Part shown: piece by piece, positions 1 to 14,520 of the stretch | Position numbering within the stretch: position 1 is the first letter of the stretch | Layout of the letters: each line of letters opens with the position of its first letter | Virus record (IMG/VR): IMGVR_UViG_3300045988_011289 | Span: 1-24,475 of that record | Direction: 5' to 3' (one strand) | Source of the DNA: a virus | DNA: 24,475 nucleotides | The notes under the pieces: model-generated | The model's input: only the letters and a program-made list of their open reading frames with translations | What the model was told of the DNA's origin: nothing | Database searches by the model: none | Position numbers and translations under genes: made by a program

Positions 1-1799
1 GGCATGATAAATCCTAGTATTGTTGCAATAGACGTTCCTACATATGTTACAACCATAGTTATAAATGAAATGATTCCACTTACCACACTTCCAACTACTT
101 GAAGGATAGATGTTATTACAGGAGTCATACCGATAACTGTTTGAATAATCTTCTTAATGATTGCTAGAATCGGTGGTCCTACAACGCTAAGAATCTTTTG
201 AGCTTGGTTAACAACATTTTGAATTGCGTTACCTATTTTACTTAAGATTTCTTTTGCAATAGGTTCAAGAGCAACTTTCATTTCGTCAATCGCTTTTCTA
301 ACTTCATCAAAAGCAGGAGCTAACACCTCTGAAACTTGACTTGTCAATTCTGTAATTCCACTTGTATCAATCTTGCTTAATACATTTGAAATTACATCAC
401 CAACTTTAGCAAATCCTTGTTGAATACTTTGTATAGCTACTGTAATCAATCCAATGATACCTGCAAGAATAGGAGTAATAAGTTCGCCTATTGGAGTAAA
501 TGAATCAAGAAATGTACGCCCTAAGCCACTTAAAGCGTTCTTTAAGCCACCATTTGCGATATCTTTAACTTTATCCATTGCCCCTTCTACGTCTTTATAT
601 TTATTCCCTACTGTCGTTAAGGACTGAATGAATCCGGCGTTGAAATCTTCTCCCATTGTGCCGAAAGCCGTTGCAGATTTATTCAACTTTTCTTGTTCAT
701 TTGTAGTCTTTGAAATATCTTCTACAATCGCATTCACAACATCTTTTTGAGTTGCTCTTCCTTCTTGCCATGCCTTAAATACATCTTGTGTTTTGGTATC
801 AAAACTATCTAAAGCTCCTTCAATAGTTCCATCAACTAACCGTGTGGTAACTTCGTTGATTGCGTCATTAACTTTATCAAGGTTATAAGCTCCACCATCT
901 AATCCATTCTGCATTAATTGGAAATATTCATCTGCCGAATATCCTGCTTGTGCGAATTTACCGGAGTATTCTGAAATGTTGTCGCCTAACTCATCTGATT
1001 TGTTTAAACCATTCTGAGCACCTGTAGCCATAAGGTCGAAAGCTTCTTGAGAAGTGATTCCGAATTGCTTCATTAATTGTTGAGCACCTCTAAGAGTTTC
1101 ATTCTCATCCATATCGAATGTATCTCTTAAAGTTAATAAATCCTCGGTCACGTTCTTTAGGTCAACATCACTTATGCCTTGCATTTGTTGCTTGACTCTG
1201 CCCATCATATCGGCAACATCTGAAACATCTTCACCGAAATTGTTTGACCAAACATCACGAGCAATGTTTTTAAATTTGCTCATTTCATTGCTTGAAGCAC
1301 CTGTTTGAGCTTGAAATTTAGCCATAGCGTCATCTAATTCTGTAGCTTGGTTAACACCTGTCTTAATTGCTAATGCCATTCCACCGATAGCTCCTGCTAT
1401 GGCAGTAACACCAACAACACCTCCTACGCCTAATCCTGTTAGGGTTTCAGTGATTACAGTAGCTTCCGGACTGATATTCTGAATCTTTCCTAATAGTCCA
1501 TCAAATCCACCTTGAATTGATTCTAAGGCACTGTTTCCTACTTTTTTAAATACATCAAATTTAGAACCTGTTTCTTGCGTTTCTGTTTGTGTATTCTTTT
1601 GCTCTTCGTTTAAATCTTTAAGTTTATCTTTAATCTTTGGTGGTGCTTTTGAACCATCAGAACCTAACTTGTCGATTGCTTTTGAAGTTTCTTTGATAGC
1701 ATTTGTAGCTCCACTTGTGACTTCATGAACGGATTTCATTCCATTCTCTAGACCACTTGTATCAATCTTTGTATCAAACTTTAATGTTCCGTCTGATAT
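1..1799 (-). CDS. Tail tape measure protein, N-terminal ~600 codons (gene runs past window start)
   Basis: The minus frame is open from 1799 to the window edge. It is not in the ORF track because it has no in-window stop or canonical start. My translation contains ...AMAKFQAQTGASSNEMSKFKNIARDVWSNNFGEDVSDVADMMGRV...LRGAQQLMKQFGITSQEAFDLMATGAQNGLNKSDELGDNISEYSGKFAQAGYSADEYF..., which resembles the TP901-type TMP core as I recall it, plus Gly/Ala/Ile-rich hydrophobic stretches. It follows two chaperone-slot ORFs. There is an in-frame TGA at 1800-1802. The first sense codon is ATA (1797-1799), 11 nt after GGAGG (1811-1815). The first ATG is at 1739. Confidence 0.9.
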   Translation of the reverse strand, partial: MSDGTLKFDTKIDTSGLENGMKSVHEVTSGATNAIKETSKAIDKLGSDGSKAPPKIKDKLKDLNEEQKNTQTETQETGSKFDVFKKVGNSALESIQGGFDGLLGKIQNISPEATVITETLTGLGVGGVVGVTAIAGAIGGMALAIKTGVNQATELDDAMAKFQAQTGASSNEMSKFKNIARDVWSNNFGEDVSDVADMMGRVKQQMQGISDVDLKNVTEDLLTLRDTFDMDENETLRGAQQLMKQFGITSQEAFDLMATGAQNGLNKSDELGDNISEYSGKFAQAGYSADEYFQLMQNGLDGGAYNLDKVNDAINEVTTRLVDGTIEGALDSFDTKTQDVFKAWQEGRATQKDVVNAIVEDISKTTNEQEKLNKSATAFGTMGEDFNAGFIQSLTTVGNKYKDVEGAMDKVKDIANGGLKNALSGLGRTFLDSFTPIGELITPILAGIIGLITVAIQSIQQGFAKVGDVISNVLSKIDTSGITELTSQVSEVLAPAFDEVRKAIDEMKVALEPIAKEILSKIGNAIQNVVNQAQKILSVVGPPILAIIKKIIQTVIGMTPVITSILQVVGSVVSGIISFITMVVTYVGTSIATILGFIM

Positions 1800-1819
1800 T
1801 CAATTTGCCACCTCCTTTT

Positions 1820-2383
1820 CTAAACATCAAAATATGAATCGAATTCATCTTTCATTTCTTGTTCCTCTATTGTTAACTCGATTGGGAAAGACCATGCTTC
1901 TTTTGCTCTTTGATATGCTTTATCCTGTGTATCATTCTTTGAAGGCTTTTCATACCCTCTAACACTCTTTGCATATCCCCATAAAGTTGAATCACCTACA
2001 ATATTGTTTGATAACGCTAGAAACTTATGCCAGTGCATATCGCATTCAGTTAAATCAATGCCGTAAAGTTGCATAAAAGCCGAATAAATATATTCACCAT
2101 CTTGTACATAATCTAATGTCTTAACGCCTGTAGAATCACTTCTAGGCGTACTAGAAGGGTTGTATAGGAATTGCTCTAACTCTTTTAAAATATGCTTATC
2201 TATGATAGGTGGTTCATCTACAAATAAATAAGAACAATCTACTTCATCAACAACATGATTGTTGAATCGCTCTAATTCTTCATAGAATCTTATCCATAAT
2301 CGAAAGTCTGTATTTAATAAAATAGGCTCGCCATCTAGCGATTGTATGCTATTTGGCAAGCCTTTTATGCGTAAATCAATCAT
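1820..2383 (-). CDS. Tail assembly chaperone-slot protein (Gp15-like)
   Basis: Track ORF of 187 aa in an ATGA overlap with the upstream ORF. It lies directly upstream of the TMP. It resembles the 'bacteriophage Gp15' family of A118-like siphoviruses from memory. Confidence 0.75.
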   Translation of the reverse strand: MIDLRIKGLPNSIQSLDGEPILLNTDFRLWIRFYEELERFNNHVVDEVDCSYLFVDEPPIIDKHILKELEQFLYNPSSTPRSDSTGVKTLDYVQDGEYIYSAFMQLYGIDLTECDMHWHKFLALSNNIVGDSTLWGYAKSVRGYEKPSKNDTQDKAYQRAKEAWSFPIELTIEEQEMKDEFDSYFDV

Positions 2384-2742
2384 TTCTTCGCCGAAATGCT
2401 AGAAACAGTTTTGCTTGCGTCAAGAAATTGCTTCATTCCATTTGTTCCGAATGTTGTTTTTAATTTCTTTTCTAACTGTTCAACCGTTTTCTTTGAATAT
2501 TCATCATCAATCAAATTGACAATATACAATACTTCCATCAAATCAACTTGTTCAAAGTCTGCACTTCCTAACATGCTTTCAATTTGTTCATCTGTTAATA
2601 CTGTTTTCAGATAGTCGAATTTAGCTCGATATGCTTCTTCATGCGTTGCGTGAAATGCGTTACAAGCGTCCTCTGCTTTTAATACTTCAATTGTTTTAGG
2701 TGGGATTTCGTACTGCTTCCCTTCATACGTGATTCTATTCAT
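2380..2742 (-). CDS. Tail assembly chaperone-slot protein (gpG position)
   Basis: Track ORF of 120 aa with an ATG preceded by AAGAGG. It is the first of two ORFs between the tail tube gene and the TMP. The function is assigned by position only. Confidence 0.7.
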   Translation of the reverse strand: MNRITYEGKQYEIPPKTIEVLKAEDACNAFHATHEEAYRAKFDYLKTVLTDEQIESMLGSADFEQVDLMEVLYIVNLIDDEYSKKTVEQLEKKLKTTFGTNGMKQFLDASKTVSSISAKK

Positions 2743-2760
2743 GATTTACCTCTTCTTTCT

Positions 2761-3267
2761 TTATACTTCTGATGTGCCTTCTGTGAAGGTTACTGTTCCA
2801 TCTGCTACCTTTGCAACACCGACACGAATATCGCTTGCAAAGTTAATATTGAAGTTGATTTTTGAATCGACACCGCTTAATGTATCGAAAATCAATTTAG
2901 CGTCAACTTCCCACGCTTTATAGCCTTTAGTTTTGTCTCCGTCAAACATAAATACAAGTAAAGCTTTTGTATTTACTTCTTCGTTGTTTGGTACGGATTT
3001 CATCATTTGTTCGTAAATGTATTCAAAATCATCTTCGCCTTTAATCATTGTTAAATCTTGCGAAATCTGAGGTGAATAACTCTTTAATGATTCTGTTGGG
3101 TTCTTATCTGCGATAAAGTCATACGTTTCAGTTTCACTATTGAATGAAATATCTAAAGTTGTAGACTTTTTAATTCGCTTGTAACCTTCTCCCATTTGTA
3201 AGAACAATCCAATCATATACTTCTTGACTGTTTGTCCTGTAGTTACTTCAGTTCCTTGAGTTGCTAT
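2761..3267 (-). CDS. Major tail (tube) protein, ATA-start model (168 aa)
   Basis: This extends track ORF 2761-3216. The frame is open up to the TAA at 3271-3273. ATA at 3265-3267 lies 8 nt after AAAGGAG (3276-3282) and overlaps the upstream TAA as TAATA. The extension reads (M)ATQGTEVTTGQTVKKY-MIGLF. The ATG at 3216 has no SD. The position between the head-tail joining genes and the chaperones supports the call. Confidence 0.8.
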   Translation of the reverse strand: MATQGTEVTTGQTVKKYMIGLFLQMGEGYKRIKKSTTLDISFNSETETYDFIADKNPTESLKSYSPQISQDLTMIKGEDDFEYIYEQMMKSVPNNEEVNTKALLVFMFDGDKTKGYKAWEVDAKLIFDTLSGVDSKINFNINFASDIRVGVAKVADGTVTFTEGTSEV

Positions 3268-3686
3268 TAATTAAGCTCCTTTCTGTATTTGACTTGAATA
3301 GTTAACGCATATACTGCTTGACTATCCTCATTTGTGTATAGATATAAACCACTTGAAACGGAAACATCCTCACAATATCTGTTTCCGTCTAGTTGTGGCA
3401 ATTCTCCGCTTAAATTCTTTTCATCAATCCAATTTTCTAATTCTTCTAGAAAAACATTGTTATCTTGCCTTTCTGATTCAATTTGTGTATTCCTACGAGC
3501 TAGAAACGTGTAGTATTCAGTACGCATTTGAGAACCATCAATGTATGTATTTACAATTGCGTTAGGTTCTTTATACAACGCATAAGAGATAGCTTGTTGC
3601 GCTAAAACATCCGTTTCAATACGTTCATCTATCTGTATATTTCCGTAGCCATATAGCCATTGAATCAACGCTTTTGATACTGTCAT
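3267..3686 (-). CDS. Tail completion / tail terminator-slot protein
   Basis: Track ORF of 139 aa with AGGAGG upstream of the ATG. It sits immediately upstream of the tail tube gene. The function is assigned by position. Confidence 0.7.
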   Translation of the reverse strand: MTVSKALIQWLYGYGNIQIDERIETDVLAQQAISYALYKEPNAIVNTYIDGSQMRTEYYTFLARRNTQIESERQDNNVFLEELENWIDEKNLSGELPQLDGNRYCEDVSVSSGLYLYTNEDSQAVYALTIQVKYRKELN

Positions 3687-4039
3687 TCACTACCTCCTAT
3701 CATTTTTTGCGCTTTCTTTAAGATTGTCTCTGCTCCACCATTTCGCATAGATTTTTTAAACCAATGGTCTGATTTACCGCCAACGAAATGAGCATTCTCT
3801 TTGTTGTAATACCACCGTCTAGCATAAGGTGCACTTGGTCCACCTTGCTTTACTAATCCACTACCGATTTGTGTTAATCGTGTAGCCGAGTTTATCAATG
3901 CTCCTGTGTCTCTAGGCGTATAAGTGGTCATAAGCCTAATAACTTCAGAGTCAATCATTTGTTGCACTCGTCCACGTTCTTCAAGTCCTCTTGATTGTTT
4001 AATTTGGGGAATTGATTCAACATCAAGTTTGACTTTCAT
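3683..4039 (-). CDS. HK97 gp10-like head-tail joining protein
   Basis: This uses the frame of track ORF 3683-4063. I start at ATG 4039, with GGGAGG upstream, 2 nt after the previous stop. The motif ...TPRDTGALINS...APYARRWYY... is typical of the gp10 family from memory. Confidence 0.75.
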   Translation of the reverse strand: MKVKLDVESIPQIKQSRGLEERGRVQQMIDSEVIRLMTTYTPRDTGALINSATRLTQIGSGLVKQGGPSAPYARRWYYNKENAHFVGGKSDHWFKKSMRNGGAETILKKAQKMIGGSE

Positions 4040-4041
4040 TC

Positions 4042-4461
4042 CTATTGACCGACAACCTCCCAATGCTTCAACATATCAACATTCGTACAATCTGTTACGC
4101 TTTGAATTGTTGTCCATTTGTGCTTTTTCTTCGCTTCATTGATTGCCTTGATGTTAGATAAATCTTCTTCGACTTCTCCAAAGAATACGAAATCAGTTTT
4201 ATCTGTATTTAATGTGAAGTGCTTTTGCTTTTCATCATTTGAAAGCTTTGCATATGCGTAAGGTTCAACATATCCCTCACGATATAGAATGGTAATATTT
4301 GTGGATGTGGCTATGCTCAGAATATTACCGTTTGCAGTTCTAACAGTTGATTGTCTCCACATACATTTATCAAGTATAGAAGCTTGAAACCTATCTTCTC
4401 TTGTTAACGTGTCATAGTAGTGATTTACAAGTGTGATTGAATCTTCAAAAAATCCTATCAT
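4042..4461 (-). CDS. Head closure / head-tail joining protein
   Basis: This uses the frame of track ORF 4042-4506. I start at ATG 4461, which lies in an ATGA overlap with the upstream stop. The function is assigned by position. It contains one copy of the VEPYAYAKLSNDE repeat. Confidence 0.7.
   Translation of the reverse strand: MIGFFEDSITLVNHYYDTLTREDRFQASILDKCMWRQSTVRTANGNILSIATSTNITILYREGYVEPYAYAKLSNDEKQKHFTLNTDKTDFVFFGEVEEDLSNIKAINEAKKKHKWTTIQSVTDCTNVDMLKHWEVVGQ
4235..4269. repeat. 35-nt direct repeat, copy A (32/35 identical to 4887-4921)
   Basis: tcatttgaaagctttgcatatgcgtaaggttcaac here versus tcatttgaaagtttcacatatgcgtaaggttcaac in copy B. Both copies are read in the same minus frame as VEPYAY(A/V)KLSNDE. 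Confidence 0.85.
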
Positions 4462-4805
4462 AATGCAATCCATCTTTCTTTCATTAAATCTGTATCGCCT
4501 AACCAAAAGGCTATGATATCCTCAAGCATGTTCCTTTTATCCGAGTGTGTAGTGTTTGTAAAGCTTTTGGAATATCCACCATTTGAGATACTTGATACAC
4601 CATCAATCGAATCTTGAAAGATTACATTGTTTAATACATCACAGATACAATCTTTTAAAGTACCTTCGTTCTGTTCATTAATAGAATCAACATTAACATA
4701 CTTCAATACCATTGCTTCTGCTTTGTAAGAATACTGATTGAATTGATTTTCATCAAATTTAGGAAAATGGGAATTGTAATATTCCCAATCTAAAATATTG
4801 TTCAT
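4458..4805 (-). CDS. Head-tail connector/adaptor-slot protein
   Basis: Track ORF of 115 aa with an ATG after AAAGGGGG. It is the first gene after the capsid region. The function is assigned by position. Confidence 0.7.
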   Translation of the reverse strand: MNNILDWEYYNSHFPKFDENQFNQYSYKAEAMVLKYVNVDSINEQNEGTLKDCICDVLNNVIFQDSIDGVSSISNGGYSKSFTNTTHSDKRNMLEDIIAFWLGDTDLMKERWIAL

Positions 4806-4825
4806 TTTACAACCCCCTTTTTTTG

Positions 4826-4966
4826 CTATTTTTTCTTTTTATCTTGAGGTTTAGCTTCCTCTTTTTCTTCTGTGGGTTCTTCTTCGTCATTTGAAAGTTT
4901 CACATATGCGTAAGGTTCAACCTTTTTATCGATAGAAGGATAACCCCATCCGATTTCCACTGCCAT
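4826..4966 (-). CDS. Small charged ORF (46 aa) following the capsid gene
   Basis: It is not in the track because it is under 60 aa. ATG 4964-4966 overlaps the capsid TAA as TAATG. The product is MAVEIGWGYPSIDKKVEPYAYVKLSNDEEEPTEEKEEAKPQDKKKK. It fills the whole gap and carries repeat copy B. Confidence 0.45.
   Translation of the reverse strand: MAVEIGWGYPSIDKKVEPYAYVKLSNDEEEPTEEKEEAKPQDKKKK
4887..4921. repeat. 35-nt direct repeat, copy B
   Basis: See copy A at 4235-4269. Confidence 0.85.
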
Positions 4967-5835
4967 TACTTCGCACTAGCAGATAAGTAAATACCTGCTA
5001 CCTTATTTTCGTATACATCTACGATTCCATATTTACGATATTTCAATACATCTGAATCTGATTCGATGTTATTTTTTGCAGGAATCACATTTGAAACAGT
5101 GTGTTTATCCCATTTCATTACGGCAGGTTTGTGAACAATTAAGAAGTTGATTGCGTGTCCATCCTCTGCCTTTTCGTATCCGCCCTCTAACTCTGTATCT
5201 TTTCCACTCAACAATTTAATTTTTGTATAGAATCGTGTTGAAGGTACAGGAACAATTTTTGCAAATCCTTGTAAAGCTTCACGTGATTTGTATGTATCTA
5301 ATGCTTTAACGCTATTTAATAATGTTGGTGTTGAATATAAGATACGTTGTTCGCTAGGAACTTCATCCTCATCCATTTTAGTGATAGCCGTTAATAATGC
5401 ACTCAAGAACTCTTCTGCACCTGTATAATCTTCTGAAACCGTTGTGATTCCTGTTGTGCCGGCAATCTTAGCGAATGTGTAAGCGTCTGCTTCCGGTGCA
5501 ACCTTTGTACGCATTAATTCCGCTCCTGCCATGCCGAATGCAATATTCATTGATTCTGCGTTATCTTGTGTATCAACTGAGATTTTAGTTCCTCTATCAT
5601 AGTCGAATGTAGCAGTTTTCCATTCTAACTTAACTGAGTTACCTGTATAACCACTGTTTCTATCGTAGTTTCCTAAACCTTTAACAGAAATTTGTGGGTA
5701 GATGATTTCTTTTGCGTTTGCTCCTGCTCGTACCATTGTAGCGCTTGCGTTTAAATCACCTGTGACTGAAGCTAACTTATATACCTCATCCAAATTTGAG
5801 ACATACGTTTTAGCTAATGCAATTTCATTTGGTAT
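4966..5835 (-). CDS. Major capsid protein, ATA-start model (289 aa)
   Basis: This extends track ORF 4966-5793, which starts at TTG. The frame is open up to the TAA at 5839-5841. ATA at 5833-5835 lies 9 nt after GGAGG (5845-5849). The extension reads (M)PNEIALAKTYVSN-LDEVYKLASVTG, which looks like a complete capsid N-terminus. The gene follows the scaffold gene. Confidence 0.85.
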   Translation of the reverse strand: MPNEIALAKTYVSNLDEVYKLASVTGDLNASATMVRAGANAKEIIYPQISVKGLGNYDRNSGYTGNSVKLEWKTATFDYDRGTKISVDTQDNAESMNIAFGMAGAELMRTKVAPEADAYTFAKIAGTTGITTVSEDYTGAEEFLSALLTAITKMDEDEVPSEQRILYSTPTLLNSVKALDTYKSREALQGFAKIVPVPSTRFYTKIKLLSGKDTELEGGYEKAEDGHAINFLIVHKPAVMKWDKHTVSNVIPAKNNIESDSDVLKYRKYGIVDVYENKVAGIYLSASAK

Positions 5836-5849
5836 TAATTAAATCCTCC

Positions 5850-6434
5850 TTATTTCTTTTCTGTAGTTAAGCCCATTGCCTGTCGTAACAATAAATCTTC
5901 GGCGTTTGGGTTATCTCCTTGCCCACTGCTTCCAACAATATTACCTTTAACACTAGGCTCATTTTGTTTTTCTTCAAACAAGATTGGCTTATTCTCTTTC
6001 AAAGTTTTGAAAGCTTTGTCAATGTCATTTGTTTGGTCTTTTGAATTTAGTAAATCATCATAGTTGAATTGTGATTTTGCTAATTCGAAATCTTTACATC
6101 CGTATTCTTTAGCTTTTGCGCTTAATACAGAATCAAGATTCATTTTGCTAATTTGAGTTTCGTATGTAGTCTTTTGAGTATCAATATCATTCGTCAATGT
6201 ATTGATTTTATTTTTCAATTCTTCTACATCAACCCCATCATAGCTTTTCTTGAAATTATCAAACTTTGTTTGAATTTCCTTTGCATTGTTTTCTGCTAAA
6301 GATAGCTTATCTTTCTGCTTATCGAACTCTGCAATTGTCTTGTAGTTATCATTTACTAGCTTTGTAATTGATTCCTCTTGTTCTTTGGTTAATTCAATGT
6401 TTGATTCTTTTAAAATTTCAATAATGTTTTTCAT
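5850..6434 (-). CDS. Scaffolding protein (GP20-like)
   Basis: Track ORF of 194 aa that is coiled-coil and charged. AGGAGGG lies upstream of the ATG. It sits directly upstream of the capsid gene. Confidence 0.8.
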   Translation of the reverse strand: MKNIIEILKESNIELTKEQEESITKLVNDNYKTIAEFDKQKDKLSLAENNAKEIQTKFDNFKKSYDGVDVEELKNKINTLTNDIDTQKTTYETQISKMNLDSVLSAKAKEYGCKDFELAKSQFNYDDLLNSKDQTNDIDKAFKTLKENKPILFEEKQNEPSVKGNIVGSSGQGDNPNAEDLLLRQAMGLTTEKK

Positions 6435-6512
6435 TTTGCCCTCCTAAAGTTATTTATAAACCGAATCTTCTCCGGTATGGCTTTGGCTAACTATATTTTA
6501 GCTTGAATAATA

Positions 6513-6527
6513 GCTCACAATGTGAGC
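6513..6527. promoter_or_regulatory. 15-nt palindrome GCTCACA-N-TGTGAGC (copy 1 of 2)
   Basis: gctcacaatgtgagc lies 3 nt downstream of the minor capsid stop codon. The same core recurs at 15547-15561. It could be a hairpin (6 bp stem, 3 nt loop) or a dimeric protein-binding site. Confidence 0.5.
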
Positions 6528-6530
6528 GTT

Positions 6531-7700
6531 TTAGCCGATTCTAAGCCTATCGTTGTGAACTCTATCTCCCATTTCAGAACTGAAAGCTTTATATACTGCA
6601 TTTGCGTGTTTTAACTTGACTTTGGCTTCTGTACTGCTTAATCCTTGATTGTCCAATAAGATTACTTCCCTCTTTAATGCTCTGATGTTTCTTTCTAATT
6701 CTCTTTGATACTGCCTAGCTTCATATCCTTCATATTTTTTCCCTTGGAATGTGAAAGGCTTTGTATCAATATTCTTTAACTGCTCTTTTGTGTAGGCATA
6801 AGGCATATCAACATCCCATACAGGTTGTGCAAAGTGTCTACATCCATAATCTTTTTCTTCTCCATGCGTCAACTGAAACAAGCTAGGATATAGTTTCCCT
6901 TGCGTATCATATCGCTTCCCTTGCCACTTCTTATGAGTGGGTCTTGCGTTTGCGTGAGCGTCAAACTCAAATACAGTAACTCCCAAATCTTTAGCACATT
7001 TATTGTTAATTTCTTGTGATGATTCCTTTTCTGCGTACTGCATTTGTTGCCTTACCCACACATCCACATTTCGCTTTACGCCTGTATCATATTCAACAAT
7101 CTTTACGCCACTATTTGCCAATTTAGAAATTGCTTTTCTACATGAATCATCAATTGTGCATTTACCACCTACTACATTTTTAACTTCTTCTTGAACTACC
7201 TTTGTAAAGAATACCGGTAGTTTATCTTTACCGATTGCATACGTGTTTGCGTTTGATTTGATATATTTCTTCCAACGCTTTGAAGTGTCATTTTGTAAAT
7301 CCATTTTGAGCTTCTTTTTGATAGGTTTTCCACTTGCTTCTTTGATTAAATCAAGTGTTCCTTGCTTATTTTCTTCAAAATCCTTTTTTGATTCATTGAT
7401 TACATCCTTTTTTAGGCTTTTTGATTCTTTTTTTGTAAATTTACGCAAATCTACTAGTGATTTTGCCAATATCTCATTAAATTTTGCGTTTTCTTCGGTG
7501 TTTTTCTCTAAAACCTCACGAATTTTATTTGAAATGAATATCATCATTCCTAATTCAAATACACTAGCACGCTTAACGCTTTTTCTTTCTCTTTCCTCAA
7601 GCTTTCTTCTTTTTTCAATCTGCTTTTGTAGGCGTTCTTGTTTCCTTTCTTCTTGCCTTTTTTTACGTTCTTGTTCCCTTTGTTCTTCTTCACTTAACAT
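6531..7700 (-). CDS. Minor capsid / head morphogenesis protein (SPP1 gp7-like / minor capsid protein 2-like)
   Basis: Track ORF of 389 aa with an ATG after GGAGGG. The C-terminal part, ...ARPTHKKWQGKRYD...YGCRHF..., resembles this family from memory. The first ~45 residues are hypercharged and rich in E, R and K. Confidence 0.75.
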   Translation of the reverse strand: MLSEEEQREQERKKRQEERKQERLQKQIEKRRKLEERERKSVKRASVFELGMMIFISNKIREVLEKNTEENAKFNEILAKSLVDLRKFTKKESKSLKKDVINESKKDFEENKQGTLDLIKEASGKPIKKKLKMDLQNDTSKRWKKYIKSNANTYAIGKDKLPVFFTKVVQEEVKNVVGGKCTIDDSCRKAISKLANSGVKIVEYDTGVKRNVDVWVRQQMQYAEKESSQEINNKCAKDLGVTVFEFDAHANARPTHKKWQGKRYDTQGKLYPSLFQLTHGEEKDYGCRHFAQPVWDVDMPYAYTKEQLKNIDTKPFTFQGKKYEGYEARQYQRELERNIRALKREVILLDNQGLSSTEAKVKLKHANAVYKAFSSEMGDRVHNDRLRIG

Positions 7701-7714: not shown

Positions 7715-7740
7715 ACAGAAAAAGGGCATTTAAGCCCTTT
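7715..7740 (-). terminator. Intrinsic terminator at the end of the fibre cassette
   Basis: The minus strand reads AAAGGGC-TTAAAT-GCCCTTT followed by TTCTGT. It lies 17 nt after the XkdX-like stop and just before the SD of the minor capsid gene. Confidence 0.65.
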
Positions 7741-7756
7741 AAAACGCTTTTAAAGC

Positions 7757-7876
7757 TTATTTAATTAATTCTTTTCTCTGAGTTTCTGTAATCCAACCGA
7801 TAGAAGCAAACATTTCTAAATCACTTTTTGTAAATAAGCCTAATTCATAATACGATTTAATTAATTCATAACTCAT
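7757..7876 (-). CDS. XkdX-family small protein (39 aa)
   Basis: It is not in the track. The product is MSYELIKSYYELGLFTKSDLEMFASIGWITETQRKELIK. Its size, the YY..G and G.IT motifs, and its position after the fibre genes all match XkdX. Confidence 0.7.
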   Translation of the reverse strand: MSYELIKSYYELGLFTKSDLEMFASIGWITETQRKELIK

Positions 7877-7877
7877 A

Positions 7878-8225
7878 CTACTTCACCCCATTCATCTGAG
7901 CTTTTAATTGAGCGATTTGTAACATTAATTGTGCGTTAATCTTTTCTTGCTCAGTCGGTACTGCTTTTGGTTCTTCGATTGTAGGTTTGTCTCCTTCTGC
8001 AACCTCAATCACTTTACCTTCTACATATTTGTAGTTATATCTTCCGTGTTCATCAACTAACCCTTTTTCTAGATATTGACTTTGAGCATGAGCGTATTTA
8101 TCTCCTTGTCCCTTGTCAATCTCTGCCATTGTTTGAATTTCTTCTTGTGATAAAAAAATATCTGAATTAATAGATGTGATGTATCCGTTTGATAAGGATA
8201 CGTATACTTTATATTCGTTCTCCAT
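7878..8225 (-). CDS. XkdW-like / fibre-associated protein
   Basis: Track ORF of 115 aa with AGGAGG upstream of the ATG. It lies between a fibre gene and the XkdX-like gene. The GYITSINS...GDKYAHAQSQY...YNYKY pattern is recalled from XkdW/DUF2977-type proteins. Confidence 0.6.
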   Translation of the reverse strand: MENEYKVYVSLSNGYITSINSDIFLSQEEIQTMAEIDKGQGDKYAHAQSQYLEKGLVDEHGRYNYKYVEGKVIEVAEGDKPTIEEPKAVPTEQEKINAQLMLQIAQLKAQMNGVK

Positions 8226-8233
8226 AGTTCCTC

Positions 8234-9115
8234 CTAATAGATTTCGGCGTCTAACTCAACGATTCCACCTGTATTACAGTTTCCAACTTTATTTGTTGTA
8301 GCAGTGGTAATGACTGTTAATCCACTGCTATTATTCACACTTGCCGAATACTTTGATAGACCACTACTAGAGCTTTGCGAAAGGGTTACAGTAGGCTTTG
8401 TTCGCATGCTTTGAACCACATGTGAAAATGAGTAATCAAAGTTCGATGTTGCCGAATAAAATACATGAAAGAAATAAATATGGTTATAAAATTGCTTACA
8501 TTTAATTAATTCCTCTGCCGAATTTGGAGCAACAAATTTTGTTGCTACTGAGCCTTGCTCTACTTTTGCATATTTCAAAGTCAGTGTTCCACTATTGACA
8601 CGAATAACTAACCTTTTTATACCTTTACTAAAGGTGAATGTATTTAATCCGTTCTTCAAAGTTCCGATTTCTGTAGTTGAAGAACCATCAGATGGACCTA
8701 CAGATACTGTAGCAGTTCCACTTACGCCAACGACATAAACTTGAACTGTGATATTTCCTTCGACCGGAGTTTTTAACTGTTGAATTAAAGCTCCGTTACT
8801 GTAAGTTGTTGGCGTGATAGTTACCGATTTATCTGAGTTAACTGTTAAACTATGCCCATACAAATACCATCTATCAACTGAATATACATTTTTTATTGTC
8901 TGAGCAACTGCACTAGTATAGCTAGTTTTCCCTCTTTGATTGATATTAAAATCCGGATTGATTAATAAATTCGGATTGCTAAATTTATTTCCTAGATAAC
9001 TTGCCAATTGCGACAATAGTCCTTTTTTTAATCCTGCTCCGTTATGCACCGGTAATAGACTTGTATCTGTAAAGCTAGGCAATGCATCTAATTCTGTTAC
9101 TTGTTTTCCTGCCAT
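8234..9115 (-). CDS. Tail-fibre / receptor-binding-like protein (293 aa)
   Basis: This uses the frame of track ORF 8234-9163. I start at ATG 9115, after AAGGAGG and 1 nt after the previous stop. The N-terminus MAGKQVTELDALPSFTDTSLLPV and the NLLINPDFNINQRG motif are typical of fibre proteins from memory. Confidence 0.7.
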   Translation of the reverse strand: MAGKQVTELDALPSFTDTSLLPVHNGAGLKKGLLSQLASYLGNKFSNPNLLINPDFNINQRGKTSYTSAVAQTIKNVYSVDRWYLYGHSLTVNSDKSVTITPTTYSNGALIQQLKTPVEGNITVQVYVVGVSGTATVSVGPSDGSSTTEIGTLKNGLNTFTFSKGIKRLVIRVNSGTLTLKYAKVEQGSVATKFVAPNSAEELIKCKQFYNHIYFFHVFYSATSNFDYSFSHVVQSMRTKPTVTLSQSSSSGLSKYSASVNNSSGLTVITTATTNKVGNCNTGGIVELDAEIY

Positions 9116-9116
9116 G

Positions 9117-9362
9117 TTATTCCTCCTTGACTTTATATTTCCAATCCGTGCCGACTTCTCCACTTGCTACCTCATAAGACCAATCGGCTAGGATTGGATT
9201 TCCTTTTTCGTCCACTAACTCTTGAGCGCTTGTTGCATTCAAGTTTGTGGTAAAGTGGTTATTCATAACCATTTTATTTAAAGCATTATGTGATGTGGTT
9301 ACAGACTTTATTTTCGAGACAAGCCACTGAATAGAAGCTCTGTCTTTGAATACGAAAGCCAT
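9117..9362 (-). CDS. Small fibre-module protein sharing a C-terminal motif with 10608-11417
   Basis: Track ORF of 81 aa. Its C-terminus NHFTT...LVDEKGNPILADWSYEVASGEVGTDWKYKVK parallels NHFTT...LVDENGHEILADWAYEVDEGEVGKDWTYKVK in fibre-1. Confidence 0.75.
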   Translation of the reverse strand: MAFVFKDRASIQWLVSKIKSVTTSHNALNKMVMNNHFTTNLNATSAQELVDEKGNPILADWSYEVASGEVGTDWKYKVKEE

Positions 9363-9365
9363 ATA

Positions 9366-9974
9366 CTAACCCCACATTGTGTTTAAATCATTTGTAGTAA
9401 TCGCAGTTAATTCTGAACTCTTAACATACGCCGATAAATCAATGTCTGTATTACCAATCTTTTCATATGTCTTTGTTTCTGCTAACCAAATATACTCATC
9501 ATAAATATCTTGCGTTCCGTGTGAATGTGCTACCAAATAAATCACACCATTCGAACCTGTAGCAGGTAAGCTCGTTACCTTTTCATATCTAATAGATGTA
9601 ATATTACCTACTGCCGAATTAATCAACGATTGTACTTGTGATTGCGTTTGATACCCTTTAGCCGTGATAATTGACTCAACGCTCGTCGCCGACTGATATC
9701 CACTGTCATTTGTTAATTGTGATGTCTTTGTTGGCACTGTAACATCTACGGCTTTTGAGCTTGGCTCAACTTTTGTACCGTTAACCTTTACAGACTCAAT
9801 CACATTCGCTTGAGCACCGCTTGCGATACCACTTAACTTTTGCTTTTCTGCGCTTGTGTAGTCATTTGTTGATAAGCCTTTACCACTTACAACATTAACT
9901 TTCCCACCTAATTCAGATTTAATCTTACTGATTAAGAGCGTCAATCCACTCTTATCTAAATATTCAATAGCTAT
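9366..9974 (-). CDS. Fibre protein 2, ATA-start model (202 aa)
   Basis: This extends track ORF 9366-9944, which starts at TTG. The frame is open up to the TAG at 9993-9995. ATA at 9972-9974 lies 6 nt after AGGAGGG (9981-9987). The extension gives (M)AIEYLDKSGLTLLISKIK. The YLDK.GL....KIK pattern is a common fibre N-terminus from memory. A GLSTNDYTSAEKQKLSGI motif is also present. Confidence 0.75.
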   Translation of the reverse strand: MAIEYLDKSGLTLLISKIKSELGGKVNVVSGKGLSTNDYTSAEKQKLSGIASGAQANVIESVKVNGTKVEPSSKAVDVTVPTKTSQLTNDSGYQSATSVESIITAKGYQTQSQVQSLINSAVGNITSIRYEKVTSLPATGSNGVIYLVAHSHGTQDIYDEYIWLAETKTYEKIGNTDIDLSAYVKSSELTAITTNDLNTMWG

Positions 9975-9985
9975 TCTTTTCCCTC

Positions 9986-10315
9986 CTATAGACTATTCCA
10001 TAATTCATCTAGTTCGGTTATTGATACAGATGTTACAGAACCTTCTGCCATAGCTCCAACATCTTCCGGAGTATATACCGGTCTTGTTTCTGCTTTCGCC
10101 CATAAAGGAACTGTTGGGTCTATTTCTTCAACCTCTCCTATGATTTCATTACCGTTTAATTTAGGCTTGTTCTTTAGCTTGTTGTAATCGTTTGTGCCTT
10201 CAACGAATTTCTCGTCTAAGCCTAAAGATAATGCTTCTTTATCTTCGTTGATTTCAACTTGAAGCTTGTCTGATTCATCTTGTATATTCATTTGAATATC
10301 TTTCATAAGAATCAT
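9986..10315 (-). CDS. Fibre-module protein (NKPKLNG motif)
   Basis: Track ORF of 109 aa with an ATG after AAGGAAGTGA. It contains the DYNKLKNKPKLNGNEIIG motif common in phage fibres. Confidence 0.7.
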   Translation of the reverse strand: MILMKDIQMNIQDESDKLQVEINEDKEALSLGLDEKFVEGTNDYNKLKNKPKLNGNEIIGEVEEIDPTVPLWAKAETRPVYTPEDVGAMAEGSVTSVSITELDELWNSL

Positions 10316-10611
10316 GTAATCACTTCCTTATTCAATACTCTATATACTTTTGTTGTTTTGATAGGAGAAGCAATAGCGACTCCTCCTTTTGTAATCATTC
10401 TTAATTGAATGTTGCAAGTTCCCTCTTTGAAATTGAGCGTTTCTTCTTGACTTAACAACACTGAAATAACATTCCCTTCAATGTCTAAATCACTTGATTC
10501 TTTTTTTAAGATATATCCGTTTTGTTCAAATACCACATAGATATTCTGCATTTCATTTAAATCAATATCATTTATTGTTATTTGAATTGTTGGCGTAGTT
10601 CCTTGTCTCAT
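10312..10611 (-). CDS. Fibre-module protein, beta-rich (99 aa)
   Basis: This uses the frame of track ORF 10312-10632. I start at ATG 10611, in an ATGA overlap with the upstream stop and preceded by AAGGTGA. Confidence 0.7.
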   Translation of the reverse strand: MRQGTTPTIQITINDIDLNEMQNIYVVFEQNGYILKKESSDLDIEGNVISVLLSQEETLNFKEGTCNIQLRMITKGGVAIASPIKTTKVYRVLNKEVIT

Positions 10612-11417
10612 GATTTCACCTTGTAAGTCCAATCTTTACCTACTTCACCTTCATCAACTTCATACGCCCAATCTGCTAGAATCTCATGACCATTCTCATC
10701 TACTAATGTTCCATCTTCTGTTAATAGAATCGTAGTGAAATGATTCTCCATAATCATCTTTTCAATATTGGAAATTCTGTTCGATAGCTTTCCTGCCGTA
10801 TTTGCGTCTAACGTATCTTTTACAGTTTCAAACCAATCATTGAACTCTGTTCTATTTGCATTCATTTCAGATTCATTCTGAGCCTTAATTTCTTTGAATA
10901 GCTCCGTTACTTGAGTGAATAAATCCAACGATTGTACACTCTTAATAGCGCTTGTAACTGCTCCACAACGTGTTGAATCTAATCTTGTATCAGTAATATC
11001 TGAGCCTTTAACTTCGTTCGAATTGCCTGTTACTGTTACCGTAGCTAATACTAAATCGTAAATAGAATCACTTCTTGTGATTCCATCATTGATATCACTT
11101 GCTACTAAGGTAATGTTTCTGTATGCGTCATTATCATTCAATCTAAGAATAATATTGTAGCTTTTAGTAGCGCTATTCTTTTCTAATGTGATGGTTTCGT
11201 CATCCCTTTGCCAATAGAATGCTCCGTTAATATTTGCTCGTCCTGCTTTAACTGTTAAGGTTAAGCCTTGAGCTTTCTCAACTCTTAAATGGTCTGAACT
11301 AGAATCATCTATGAATACGCCATTTGTAAAGTAGCTTGAGAATAATCTTCTGAAAGCGTCATATAGTACTAATCTATCGCCATTTCTTGAGACGAATGGA
11401 AAATATGTAGTTGCTAT
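10608..11417 (-). CDS. XkdV-like fibre/structural protein 1, ATA-start model (269 aa)
   Basis: This extends track ORF 10608-11141 (TTG start) by 92 codons. The frame is open up to the TGA at 11424-11426. ATA at 11415-11417 overlaps the portal TAG as ATAG. The extension reads (M)ATTYFPFVSRNGDRLVLYDAFRRLFSSYFTNGVF...KAGRANINGAFYW...SYNIILRLNDND. It matches the conserved N-terminal domain of XkdV-type fibre proteins from memory. Confidence 0.8.
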   Translation of the reverse strand: MATTYFPFVSRNGDRLVLYDAFRRLFSSYFTNGVFIDDSSSDHLRVEKAQGLTLTVKAGRANINGAFYWQRDDETITLEKNSATKSYNIILRLNDNDAYRNITLVASDINDGITRSDSIYDLVLATVTVTGNSNEVKGSDITDTRLDSTRCGAVTSAIKSVQSLDLFTQVTELFKEIKAQNESEMNANRTEFNDWFETVKDTLDANTAGKLSNRISNIEKMIMENHFTTILLTEDGTLVDENGHEILADWAYEVDEGEVGKDWTYKVKS

Positions 11418-12817
11418 TCTTCGTCATCCCCCTCTCCATCATCTTGAATTTCTTCATTTAATAACTCCGTTGCTTCTTCTTCAGTGAATCCGTATTGTTT
11501 CATGAAGTACATAATCTTTAATCTTGGAATGTCAAATGTTAATGCGTCATTTCTTAACGCTTGTGTGGTACTTTGTTTATCCTCGATATATGTATCATCA
11601 TAATCAATAGCAATGTCTAATGAATTGATATTAAGCTTTCTGCCTTGTGTTAATTCATAGAAGTATGCTATTGCTTGAATAATATCTTGAATATATGCAG
11701 TAGATTCTTTACGTTGTGAATTTACTTCTTTCATTGCGTCTTGATTCTCACCAATATATTCTGTAGCCGTCACAATTCTTCCACTTTCAAAGGTGTATTT
11801 TTTTGTACCGAATCCAAACATCATTGATAAGATACTTAATGCAGTTTCTAACGATTGGACAACTTCTGCCGTTCTAACTGTTGGATTGTATTCTTGCCAT
11901 AAAGCTTTTTCTTCCGGTAACTTATCTCTACCTAACTGAACGAAAATCTTTTTCATTTGTGGATTCATCTTAATCTTTCCATTCTCGTCTTTCTGCATTA
12001 ATGCTTCATTCACAAGAACGATTTTATCTGACTTCAACAAATCACGATTCCACATTGTCATTGTTAAATCAATTGTTTTTAGTGGAGCAATTGCACTCCA
12101 AATCTTCGGCAAGCCGTACCCTTGCATTTGTAAGTTGTTCACCTTTGCATTTCTCATAATTGCAAACGGCTTAACCACATCTAATTGAACAATCTGAGCA
12201 CGGTCTTTTATTTCTTCGCCTGTATCTTTGAAGTAATGTGTTTCTGCAATGTACCTTTCGTCTTGTCCTTTTAAGAACATGACCATAACATATACTTTTT
12301 TTAGTTTCTCATAATTTACACCAACGAAAGCTACCTCAACAATTTCATCATTTATAACAGTTAATGGAAGGATATTCATTGAATCACAATAGTTGATTCT
12401 GATTTCTCCTCCACTGAATGTACCATCTTCATAAATCTCGGCATTAGATACCGTAACATAAGCTCCTACTGTACCATTTGCAGACATTTGTTCAACTTGT
12501 TTCCTGTACATTACATCAAACCTATTCTTGTTTAGAATATCTGTAATGATGTCATTTGTAGTACTGTCCTCTGTAGCATTTATATCTATGATTTCAATCA
12601 AGTTTGCATCATCTTCACACAAACGTTTCGCAAAGTCTGTTTTATCAAGTGTGTATTCCTCATTGTTCAAGGTGTATGCCGTATGAAATTCTGTTTCGGT
12701 ATTCGTGTACCACTTGTTACACAATTCAATAATCTCAATTGCATTTGTATCTACATAGTACCCTCTATCGTTTAGGTAATTCTGAAACCACGGATTACGT
12801 GTGTTAGATGTTTCTAT
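11414..12817 (-). CDS. Portal protein, ATA-start model (467 aa)
   Basis: This extends track ORF 11414-12724, which starts at TTG. ATA at 12815-12817 lies 6 nt after AAGGAGG (12824-12830), with an in-frame TAA two codons upstream. The extension reads (M)ETSNTRNPWFQNYLNDRGYYVDTNAIEIIEL-CNKWY. W...L..RGY is the usual N-terminus of this portal family from memory. The gene follows the large terminase. Confidence 0.85.
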   Translation of the reverse strand: METSNTRNPWFQNYLNDRGYYVDTNAIEIIELCNKWYTNTETEFHTAYTLNNEEYTLDKTDFAKRLCEDDANLIEIIDINATEDSTTNDIITDILNKNRFDVMYRKQVEQMSANGTVGAYVTVSNAEIYEDGTFSGGEIRINYCDSMNILPLTVINDEIVEVAFVGVNYEKLKKVYVMVMFLKGQDERYIAETHYFKDTGEEIKDRAQIVQLDVVKPFAIMRNAKVNNLQMQGYGLPKIWSAIAPLKTIDLTMTMWNRDLLKSDKIVLVNEALMQKDENGKIKMNPQMKKIFVQLGRDKLPEEKALWQEYNPTVRTAEVVQSLETALSILSMMFGFGTKKYTFESGRIVTATEYIGENQDAMKEVNSQRKESTAYIQDIIQAIAYFYELTQGRKLNINSLDIAIDYDDTYIEDKQSTTQALRNDALTFDIPRLKIMYFMKQYGFTEEEATELLNEEIQDDGEGDDEE

Positions 12818-12820
12818 TTC

Positions 12821-14158
12821 TTACCTCCTTAAATCTATATATCCACTATGGGTTATAAATGTATAGCAGAACGAATCCCAATCATCATTGATATTGTTTA
12901 CGTTCTCATCTTTTGGAATGTCTTTCTTTTCATCCCATACTAATTCGCTCAATGCGTTTATTAAGTTCTTACAATGTTCTTCTATTTTTAATCTACCTGT
13001 AACAAGTAAGCTATCAACCGTTATAGGACGGTCCGTAAGTTCATTCTTCTTAACTGGTGCAATTATACTTCCGTCTAATCCTTCGGCATAGAAATAAGCT
13101 CTAAGCGTGTTTATCAACGTATTAGAAGCACTGTCCGGAAATATCCATTCTACATATCCGTAACATTCAATACAACGCTTATAGAACCTTACAAATGCTT
13201 TGCAGAACTTTGTTGCGTCTATGGAATTTGACTTTGCCATGTCTCCTTCATCAAGTGCCCACATATAATCCCAATCATTTGTAAACCCTGTTAAGTGCCA
13301 TGAATATTTAGAGCCATTGTCTCCAAAGTCAACGCCTATGATTAAATGACTGAACCTTTTTCCTTGTTCCTTCATCTTTTCTTTTAGACTCTGATATTTG
13401 AATAGGTAAGGTTTGCAGTCATTTGCAAAATAAGGAAAGACTAGTCCTTCGGCAACCATTCTTTCACCTAGAATATCTCTCTTGTACCATACTGAATTCA
13501 TGTCATATTTGTTTTTGATTTCTTCTATTCTTTCTTGGCTCATTGTAGCGTTGTCAAAGATATTGAAATGCTCATATCTGTACCAATCTAACCCCATGAA
13601 TTTATCTATGTAATTCTTATAAATGTCTGCGTTGGGGTTTGATGGGTTTAAATCCCATAATGTAAATGGATGTACGCTTGCAATCTGTCTTGCCATTGCT
13701 ACCTTGATAAAGCTTGTTCTAGAATCATCACAATCGTAATGCTCATTTATTTCGGTCGCTATCCATCCACCATATGAGTTACCTAATATGCTCTTATATG
13801 AATCGGACTTTCCACCACCTGTAAATATCACTATCTTTTCGCCTGTCTTTGTTTGGACAAATAACGCTTCGTTTGATTTGTATTTACCCCAACGACACCG
13901 TCCACGAAAGATATGCTCTAAGCCGAAACCATTGCAATCACCTATATTTAATTTTGCATTTGGTAAGCTTGACCCACTCGCTAAATGTATTTTATCTTCA
14001 CATGTTTCTAAATACATTGAAAAGATTATGCAGTGGTCAATCGTTTTACCACTTCGTACCGCTCCTTCTGCTACACTTTGTTTGTAATTTAGGGCGGTCT
14101 TAATATAGTTCTTGTGTTTATCTGAAAATTTCCCCCAAGGAATCGTTCTAGTCATCAT
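12821..14158 (-). CDS. terL: Terminase large subunit
   Basis: Track ORF of 445 aa with a Walker A-like motif, AEGAVRSGKT, near the N-terminus. It is in an ATGA overlap with the small terminase and lies upstream of the portal. Confidence 0.9.
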   Translation of the reverse strand: MMTRTIPWGKFSDKHKNYIKTALNYKQSVAEGAVRSGKTIDHCIIFSMYLETCEDKIHLASGSSLPNAKLNIGDCNGFGLEHIFRGRCRWGKYKSNEALFVQTKTGEKIVIFTGGGKSDSYKSILGNSYGGWIATEINEHYDCDDSRTSFIKVAMARQIASVHPFTLWDLNPSNPNADIYKNYIDKFMGLDWYRYEHFNIFDNATMSQERIEEIKNKYDMNSVWYKRDILGERMVAEGLVFPYFANDCKPYLFKYQSLKEKMKEQGKRFSHLIIGVDFGDNGSKYSWHLTGFTNDWDYMWALDEGDMAKSNSIDATKFCKAFVRFYKRCIECYGYVEWIFPDSASNTLINTLRAYFYAEGLDGSIIAPVKKNELTDRPITVDSLLVTGRLKIEEHCKNLINALSELVWDEKKDIPKDENVNNINDDWDSFCYTFITHSGYIDLRR

Positions 14159-14520
14159 TTTAATAAATCTGCCAAAGGTGTTAAGTCCTCAATCTCATGT
14201 GTCATTGTTTGTTCAACTTTTTCACTCTGTCCAAGCATTTGTTTACCCAACCATATAAGCATGGTCGTATTTCCTTTTGACGCTTTTTCAAATTGCATAC
14301 GTCTTAAACTTCTTTTTGAGTGGCTTATACCTTTTTTATATGTCTGACAAAACTTTCCATTTCTTAATAATGTTCTTACCGAACATCCTAGGAAATCTGC
14401 AATTTCTTCTTGAGTACATCCAATAGAAGCAAGCTTTTCAACTGCTTCATAATCAATCTTTATTCTTGGGCGTCCTCCTGCGTGTTTCTCTGCTATTTTA
14501 ATACCCCCTATAACAATCAT
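14155..14520 (-). CDS. terS: Terminase small subunit (HTH); start uncertain (ATG 14520 or ATA 14496)
   Basis: Track ORF of 121 aa. The pattern GGRPRIKIDYEAVEKLASIGCTQEEIADFLGCSVRTL...MLIWLGKQ is typical of TerS. ATG 14520 has no SD. ATA at 14494-14496 lies 6 nt after AGGGGGT (14503-14509) and 1 nt after the stop of the upstream small ORF. That start would give (M)AEKHAGGRPR. Confidence 0.85.
   Translation of the reverse strand: MIVIGGIKIAEKHAGGRPRIKIDYEAVEKLASIGCTQEEIADFLGCSVRTLLRNGKFCQTYKKGISHSKRSLRRMQFEKASKGNTTMLIWLGKQMLGQSEKVEQTMTHEIEDLTPLADLLK

Follow-up and report, generated by a model that had tools for sequence, protein, structure and literature searches.

A group of human-gut phages with ATA start codons and an initiator-type tRNA carrying the anticodon UAU

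ATA codons at the starts of phage genes

We analysed a stretch of 24,475 nucleotides (nt) of viral DNA, referred to below as the window, which comprises positions 1 to 24,475 of IMG/VR record IMGVR_UViG_3300045988_011289, and focused on the ATA codons that open many of its genes and on a transfer RNA (tRNA) with the anticodon UAU that it encodes. The window derives from a siphovirus-like phage genome with ~34% G+C, and all its genes are on the minus strand. PHROG and Pfam profiles gave a gene order that begins with a Sak annealing protein, a NinB-like protein, a RusA-like resolvase, a replication initiator, a dUTPase and SSB, and proceeds through a small putative regulator, the tRNA and a ParB-like nuclease. 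The last block consists of the small and large terminase (terS and terL), portal, head fibre-like proteins, minor head protein and scaffold, followed by the major capsid, connector proteins, major tail protein and tape measure. Among the 46 genes of the map, 33 start with ATG, 11 with ATA and 2 with TTG. The whole window had no megablast match among GenBank phages, an exact look-up of TerL in an assembly index returned no record, and there was no close relative among GTDB representative genomes; a host, Amedibacillus sp. YH-ame6, was found via a portal homologue. The comparisons described below place the window's phage in a group of human-gut phages that have ATA starts and their own UAU initiator-type tRNA.

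An earlier, sequence-only reading of the window had proposed ATA starts behind Shine-Dalgarno (SD) motifs for seven genes, namely those for the small terminase, portal, two fibre-like proteins (fibre-1 and fibre-2), major capsid, major tail and tape measure. The positions, SD motifs, spacings and distances to the next canonical start were all as claimed, and an in-frame stop lies 0–7 codons upstream of the ATA at each of the seven sites. A scan of every minus-strand open reading frame (ORF), scored by anti-SD duplex energy, added the RusA-like resolvase, the replication initiator and the minor head protein as further candidates, together with two ambiguous small ORFs (Table 1). As for canonical codons near these sites, an alternative ATG for the small terminase at 14520 has no SD, the first ATG of the resolvase is 28 codons 3' of the ATA with a weak SD, the sole canonical codon near the start of the replication initiator is a GTG within the SD itself, and the next canonical start of fibre-1 is 92 codons downstream. 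The large terminase gene starts at ATGATG without an SD (14155–14160), overlapping the small-terminase stop in an arrangement of translational coupling.

The same reading had held that the residues added by the ATA starts look like genuine family N-termini, and profile and homologue N-termini indeed map onto the ATA for the major capsid, portal, fibre-1 and fibre-2 proteins. Residues 3–288 of the major capsid protein align to positions 3–294 of the PHROG major head profile, the fibre-1 alignment to a PHROG head-protein profile begins at residue 3, and motifs conserved among ATG-started portal homologues recur in the 31 residues that the ATA start adds to the portal. We scanned IMG/VR with the capsid protein and found ATA at the capsid start position in 35 of 35 close relatives (91–99% identity); the ATA stays while these relatives differ in the spacer and in the second codon (CCA, GCA or GCG). 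In 44 more distant capsid homologues, at 47–56% identity, the orthologous codon is ATG at exactly the same aligned position (MPNTIALAK..., MANSIALAK...), and 13 capsid homologues in bacterial genomes have ATG there too. The start codon was also ATA in 48/48 aligned relatives for portal, 47/47 for fibre-1 and 32/32 for tape measure; the major tail gene has ATA in 32 relatives and ATG in one (L020). ATA and ATG are swapped between near-identical genomes at three start positions: that of the major tail gene, that of fibre-2, which is polymorphic in close relatives (18 ATA, 7 ATG) in an otherwise identical context, and that of a gene at 9115, which has ATG in the window and ATA in two relatives.

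We counted ORFs of at least 100 codons that open with an SD and ATA and lack a canonical SD start in the vicinity. The window has 7, the close relatives (35 in number) have 233 per 659 kb and ATG-using relatives have 3 per 676 kb; the last value is the same as that for control triplets, and the enrichment in the clade is ~100-fold. On these comparisons, the ATA codons of the window are start codons and not incidental isoleucine codons.

Public collections carry N-terminally shortened versions of the ATA-start genes (window 11414–12817; P0001, P0003, P0037); gene callers disallow ATA starts. Shortened portal entries are 436 amino acids long in a cluster of 1406 members, 365 in nr and 408 in Amedibacillus.

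Internal ATA codons (114 in the window, 21% of the internal isoleucine codons) align with isoleucine, leucine or valine in homologues, not with methionine, and internal ATT and ATC codons align likewise. Reassignment of the start codon, one of the possibilities raised by the sequence-only reading, did not hold: ATG still opens ~70% of genes and internal ATA is still read as I/L/V, and the start-codon set is expanded, not replaced. The other possibility, gating of late-gene translation, proved too narrow because two replication genes, those for the RusA-like resolvase and the replication initiator, also start with ATA. Nonetheless, ATA starts open 8 of 21 late genes as against 3–4 of 26 early genes, and this enrichment in virion genes fits a regulatory role. 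Two changes of the genetic code were considered and rejected: AUA as methionine in elongation, given the alignment of internal ATA with I/L/V, and code 4 (TGA = Trp) as a means of lengthening the ORFs, given that the upstream in-frame stops are mostly TAA.

Table 1. Features of the window (SD, Shine-Dalgarno motif; all on the minus strand)
Feature	Coordinates	Strand	Start codon, SD and basis
Tape measure, runs off the window	1..1799	-	ATA 1797-1799; SD GGAGGTG
Major tail protein (candidate)	2761..3267	-	ATA 3265-3267, overlaps upstream TAA stop
Minor head protein	3683..4045	-	Probable ATA start 4043-4045; ATG two codons later
Major capsid protein	4966..5835	-	ATA 5833-5835; SD AAGGAGG
Structural protein (fibre-2)	9366..9974	-	ATA 9972-9974; SD AGGAGGG; profile alignment from residue 4
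Head/virion fibre-like protein (fibre-1)	10608..11417	-	ATA 11415-11417, overlaps portal stop codon
Portal	11414..12817	-	ATA 12815-12817; SD AAGGAGG 12824-12830; PHROG portal
Small terminase	14155..14496	-	ATA 14494-14496; SD AGGGGGT 14503-14509; PHROG terminase small subunit
Terminator-like hairpin then T run, ~80 nt 3' of the tRNA	15348..15366	-	
Initiator-type tRNA, anticodon UAU	15447..15522	-	Rfam RF00005, alignment, BLAST
Hairpin then TTTTTTT, end of upstream gene	15546..15562	-	Tool gave + strand; minus-strand T run by eye
Small ORF, ambiguous	15872..16066	-	SD and ATA 16064-16066; ATG two codons later; ATA kept in 38 relatives
Replication initiation/DnaD-like protein	20256..21005	-	ATA 21003-21005; SD GGGGGTGA
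RusA-like resolvase	21007..21384	-	ATA 21382-21384; PHROG RusA alignment from residue 2
Small ORF, uncertain gene	24169..24297	-	Strong SD GGAGGTGA then ATA 24295-24297

Elsewhere in the early region, a small protein encoded at 19566–19823 matches Pfam PF21825 (crAss001_48-related protein) with E=2e-17.

An initiator-type tRNA with the anticodon UAU

The sequence-only reading had also described an initiator-like tRNA with the anticodon UAU. This tRNA is real: the Rfam model RF00005 scored 48.8 bits (gathering threshold 29) in a full-length alignment to 15450–15522 of the minus strand. ARAGORN reported no tRNA in the window because the T stem is bulged and position 55 is G, and it does detect the variants v4 and v8 and the versions of three related lineages (L149, L154 and L407, described below). 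The anticodon loop, CUUAUUA, is invariant, with U at position 37 (window 15485). The molecule has an A1xA72 mismatch, the pairs G2:C71, C3:G70, A11:U24, A29:U41, G30:C40 and U31.G39, the T loop UGCAAAU, A73 and an encoded CCA. Its T arm (15463–15480) has a one-base bulge in the T stem that is conserved among tRNAs of the window type (GAA[U/C]GG or GAAG[A]G against CCUUC), and G55.

By exact-pattern scans, 35 IMG/VR contigs carry the tRNA, which occurs in 11 sequence variants. The anticodon stem has two versions, CUAG/CUAG and UCGG/CCGA, with three fully compensated pair changes between them, and one variant has C31:G39 in place of U31.G39. An alignment of 16 sequences, made up of the clade variants and related tRNAs, has 95% of its cells paired and compensatory changes in 12 pairs, and its covariation was matched by none of the shuffles. 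Bases 1 and 72 do not pair in 14 of the 16 tRNAs. All 16 have G2:C71, C3:G70, A11:U24, G30:C40 and the D stem GAGC/GCUC; some of the sequences were gathered by patterns that require this D stem, which partly accounts for its constancy, but the acceptor-end features were not selected for. The L407 tRNA, outside this alignment, has the D stem GAAU/AUUC and keeps G2:C71, C3:G70 and A11:U24. G29:C41 is found in v4 and L149, and G30:C40 is the sole invariant among the three anticodon-stem pairs characteristic of initiators.

The mismatch at 1:72 and the pairs at 2:71, 3:70 and 11:24 are determinants of formylation, and the mismatch also excludes EF-Tu and use in the A site (PMC11231383); G30:C40 is the one anticodon-stem pair that is sufficient and essential in E. 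coli (PMC5389676). We compared the tRNA body with 50,697 phage records by BLAST, and all annotated matches were tRNA-Met and none tRNA-Ile. With bacterial initiator tRNA (tRNAfMet) the phage tRNA shares the cloverleaf, the 1x72 mismatch, G2:C71, C3:G70, A11:U24, A73, G30:C40 and, in most variants, the variable loop AGGUC. The variant v4 has the anticodon stem of Bacillota tRNAfMet, and its anticodon arm differs from Listeria- and Staphylococcus-derived records only at positions 31, 34, 37 and 39. By contrast, the phage tRNA has UAU rather than CAU, U37 rather than A, U31.G39 rather than G:C and, in the window version, the bulged T stem and G55. It is not classed as an ordinary tRNAfMet because it lacks both the anticodon CAU and the full set of three consecutive G:C pairs (29–31:39–41), of which it has one or two. 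Judged by its sequence, the tRNA is a remodelled initiator and not a tRNA-Ile, and it probably derives from a Bacillota tRNAfMet.

C34 is the main determinant recognised by methionyl-tRNA synthetase (MetRS) among the E. coli enzymes, and a tRNAfMet with an isoleucine anticodon initiates with isoleucine in vivo. Both facts point to isoleucine as the amino acid on the phage tRNA; the loss of A37, however, takes away a determinant for isoleucyl-tRNA synthetase (IleRS). A73, G2:C71 and C3:G70 are retained despite that loss. PHROG and Pfam searches that covered most window proteins revealed no gene for a formyltransferase, an aminoacyl-tRNA synthetase, a protein like an initiation factor or a tRNA-modification enzyme.

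The position of the tRNA, next to a gene for a weakly sigma-r4-like regulator and flanked by the two hairpins listed in Table 1, fits a separate small transcription unit at the boundary of the early and late gene blocks. By eye, TGTAATAAT, in the 15523–15545 region, resembles an extended -10 element and ends 6 nt before the first base of the tRNA, and the flanking sequence AATTGTTTT is conserved in relatives. These features hint that the tRNA is a primary transcript that begins at or near its mature 5' end.

The base 5' of the start codon is A at 12/12 ATA starts of the window (e.g. 5836, 12818, 3268, 1800) but at only 14/33 ATG starts (Fisher p=4e-4), and it is A in 54/54 unique ATA contexts from relatives. 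Nearly all ATA starts of L224 and L407 also have this -1 A, with one possible exception, the Dit gene of L407. All four lineages that carry this type of tRNA share the U at position 37, where tRNAs almost always have a purine. Because the -1 A and U37 go together, we suggest that the two may be placed to pair, making a four-base signal, AAUA:UAUU.

The tRNA and ATA starts in related phages

The tRNA is present in every contig of the clade that covers its region; the clade contigs without it (L009, L025, L028, L033/L413 and L034) end before the tRNA position, and the one other case, L024/L389, was read in part (see below). Three further lineages have tRNAs with the CUUAUUA loop, a 1x72 mismatch and diverged stems (L149/L172/L268; L154/L224; L407), so that, with the window's clade, the tRNA co-occurs with ATA starts in four lineages. 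In L154/L224 the mismatch is C1xA72, and terL, portal and capsid are 73%, 62% and 53% identical to those of the window. L407, a prophage region, lies on contig JBSPEZ010000008.1 of Amedibacillus sp. YH-ame6 (Erysipelotrichaceae; GCA_053848845.1); its tRNA, at 7861–7936, has the AxA mismatch found in the window, and identity to the window proteins is 68% for its capsid and 53% for its portal. A gene for an RtcB RNA ligase (L407:1235–2419) lies a few kb upstream of this tRNA and may relate to the repair of cleaved tRNA.

We observed SD and ATA starts in each of these lineages. They open terS, portal, capsid, a minor head homologue (window gene 4045) and, with no equivalent in the window, an ORF of 73 residues in L224; terS, portal, capsid, major tail, tape measure and probably Dit in L407; terS, portal and both fibre genes in L268; and the RusA-like resolvase, arranged as in the window, and a replication-region gene in L149. 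The terS gene of L224 has no canonical codon among its first 60, the L224 minor head homologue has its first ATG 9 codons in and without an SD, and the L407 tape measure opens with ATA GCA GAT GGA (IADGTL...).

The start-codon type is the same in the window and L407 in 8/8 comparable gene pairs, seven matched by BLASTP (39–68% protein identity) and the eighth, tape measure, by resemblance at the N-terminus. ATA opens portal, capsid, major tail and tape measure, and ATG opens terL, minor head, scaffold and g3686. Given this agreement across such divergence, the choice between ATA and ATG is, as far as comparison of the sequences goes, gene-specific and maintained by selection, although one transition would be enough to turn ATA into ATG. 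Across all four lineages, terL keeps ATG and the adjoining terS and portal keep ATA.

ATG-using sister lineages have neither ATA starts nor the UAU tRNA, and the L038 group instead encodes a conventional initiator tRNA(CAU). The latter (L038:9260–9334; also L039–L043 and L079) has a G1xG72 mismatch and three G:C pairs, and lies ~700 nt upstream of an ATG-start capsid gene. Pattern scans of IMG/VR and metagenomes for the U37-type tRNA revealed no further lineages among the matches listed; the other matches listed were nine tRNAs with A37 and, for the rest, chance matches in coding sequence.

Probable initiation by the phage tRNA: alternatives, proposed mechanism and meaning

We consider it probable, with good confidence, that the phage tRNA initiates translation at (A)AUA codons placed by an SD; the idea that a UAU initiator-like tRNA serves the ATA starts, put forward in the sequence-only reading, came through all the computational tests made here. 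The alternative that comes closest, although we regard it as unlikely, is that the tRNA is an elongator tRNA-Ile(UAU) that serves internal ATA codons, and that the ATA starts are read near-cognately by host fMet-tRNA(CAU) with the help of strong SDs. Phage tRNAs often match codons that the host reads poorly, internal ATA is frequent in the window (21% of isoleucine codons), and ARAGORN types the variants it detects as tRNA-Ile(tat); the anticodon UAU is shared with elongators of Mycoplasma mobile, some lactobacilli and phages. However, the phage tRNA differs from such elongators in that 1/72 is mismatched in all four lineages, 11:24 is A:U rather than the elongator Y11:R24, position 37 is not a purine, and its nearest sequences are tRNA-Met; the 1x72 mismatch and A11:U24 exclude EF-Tu and A-site use (PMC11231383). 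An elongator would also leave unexplained the joint gain and loss of ATA starts and tRNA, the invariant -1 A, and the placing of the most abundant proteins on a codon that initiates very poorly with CAU.

Less probable still is termination-reinitiation from the upstream cistron, with no dedicated tRNA. Some ATA codons do abut or overlap an upstream stop (ATAG at portal/fibre-1, TAATA at major tail, TAA-GAA-ATA after terL), but those of the capsid, tape measure, small terminase, fibre-2 and replication-initiator genes lie 13–140 nt away from the preceding stop, each behind a strong SD of its own. Reinitiation accounts for neither the tRNA nor the -1 A and, as far as is known, still uses an initiator tRNA and a start codon. 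We give even less credence to the idea that the true starts are the downstream TTG or ATG codons and the upstream SD and ATA are incidental. Gene callers and public databases do give such short forms (436, 365 and 408 residues for portal), but the downstream codons have no SD, the residues skipped are conserved parts of the families, the homologues' ATG lies exactly at the ATA position, and among the ATA-start genes of relatives there are ORFs without any canonical codon in the first 60–70. Finally, a systematic G-to-A sequencing or assembly error, against which the sequence-only reading had cautioned, or a change to AUA = Met in elongation has next to no probability and is already refuted by the comparative data: the same ATA occurs, amid varying neighbouring bases, in contigs of six or more IMG samples, several ENA assemblies and the isolate genome, dozens of independent assemblies in all, while 33 window starts are ATG and internal ATA aligns with I/L/V.

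Several observations weigh against initiation by the phage tRNA. First, L024/L389 (IMGVR_UViG_3300029219_000010) joins an ATA-start capsid-tail module of the window type to an all-ATG phage type that has 0 ATA starts among 819 ORFs in 42 related loci. This record, which was read from beyond its first 22.8 kb, is either a natural recombinant or an assembly chimera. Second, tRNAs(UAU) with an initiator body and A37 occur in unrelated viral contigs from various environments (L134, L135, L136/L153, L142, L157 and L164; for example L134:915–990), some with a paired U1:A72. There were no convincing ATA starts in the flanks of these tRNAs that we examined, and an initiator body with UAU therefore does not by itself predict ATA starts. 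Third, the three consecutive G:C pairs of canonical initiators are incomplete in the window tRNA, and U37, G55 and the bulged T stem, which would be unusual in any tRNA, might compromise its function; these three features are nevertheless conserved across >40 contigs, and the T arms of the L149, L154 and L407 versions are normal. Fourth, as judged from the E. coli enzymes, MetRS charges a tRNA with UAU poorly, and a tRNA that lacks A37, the t6A site, may be disfavoured by IleRS.

The comparisons show that the ATA codons are starts, that the tRNA combines an initiator body with UAU, that tRNA and ATA starts co-occur across the lineages, and that the choice of start codon is conserved gene by gene. 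From these we infer that the tRNA is expressed, charged with isoleucine or methionine, formylated and used in initiation, and that it serves regulation or insulation. In the mechanism that we propose, the phage would encode a private initiator tRNA, a Bacillota tRNAfMet whose anticodon was changed from CAU to UAU. This tRNA would sit in the P site of the 30S subunit over an ATA located 6–11 nt 3' of a strong SD, and the -1 A may pair with U37, an AAUA:UAUU contact that would bolster three weak A-U pairs. About a quarter of the phage genes would thereby start at ATA, which the host initiator reads very poorly; they would include those for the small terminase, portal, major capsid, major tail, tape measure, resolvase and replication initiator. 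Internal ATA would still be read as isoleucine by the host elongator tRNA. As a consequence, a fixed subset of genes would be translated at a useful rate only when the phage tRNA is present, and the tRNA may in this way gate the timing of their expression. We can only speculate about the purpose, which might lie in timing, in the insulation of prophage genes, or in evading nucleases directed at the host initiator.

Taken as a whole, a private and partly orthogonal initiation channel is a tentative reading, which we hold to be possible rather than probable. It would combine (A)AUA read by positions 34–37 (UAUU), a probable formyl-isoleucine start in place of methionine, one set of genes retained on the channel through long divergence, dependence of virion and replication proteins on the tRNA, and a role in timing, insulation or toxin immunity. 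Such a channel could confer immunity to host toxins that cleave the anticodon loop of tRNAfMet; the changes at positions 37 and 39 and the RtcB gene of the prophage hint at a conflict over tRNA.

The closest known counterparts are engineered initiators, among them amber tRNAfMet(CUA), i-tRNA(AAC) and anticodon mutants that initiate with Ile, Val or Phe (PMC11231383; bioRxiv 10.1101/2021.05.25.445580). The phage system appears to share with them a tRNAfMet body with a changed anticodon, a complementary non-AUG codon behind an SD and the retained sense of that codon in elongation. Unlike these laboratory constructs, it occurs in nature, persists across diverged lineages and applies to essential virion genes, and its tRNA has in addition U37, matched by the invariant -1 A of the mRNA, and U31.G39. 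With the stop-codon recoding by suppressor tRNAs of crAss-like and Lak phages, it would share the need of a gene subset for a phage decoding component, and it shares the mis-annotation of those genes by gene callers. However, it would act at initiation, not termination, on a sense codon whose role depends on its position, and it extends beyond the late genes; the features of stop recoding are absent here, the ORFs being open under code 11 and the UAU tRNA being the only tRNA of the window. Non-AUG starts read by a normal initiator are known from the AUU of infC, which serves autoregulation, and from AUA, AUU and AUC starts in Mollicutes and mitochondria. These have in common with the phage genes an AUN start behind an SD, but there the initiator has CAU (or modified CAU) and no dedicated tRNA is involved; in bacteria such starts are rare and weak, whereas here they open about a quarter of the genes, including those for the most abundant proteins.

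Full-text searches of a literature collection that excludes most subscription journals turned up engineered non-AUG initiators but no natural initiator tRNA with an anticodon other than CAU, and no phage ATA-start system. To our knowledge, initiation with a CAU anticodon is treated as universal, and non-AUG initiators are known only as laboratory constructs. If initiation by the phage tRNA is true, expansion of the start-codon set would join the natural variations of the genetic code, beside the recoding of stop codons by phages, and would show a virus tying key genes to its own translation component. The tRNA and its start codon would then be a naturally evolved orthogonal initiation pair for synthetic biology, with the unexplored features U37/-1 A, U31.G39 and G30:C40 only, and a systematic annotation error would be exposed, in which genes are shortened or missed and the tRNA is missed or labelled tRNA-Ile. 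The cultured host of the prophage, Amedibacillus sp. YH-ame6 (GCA_053848845.1), makes the hypothesis directly testable.

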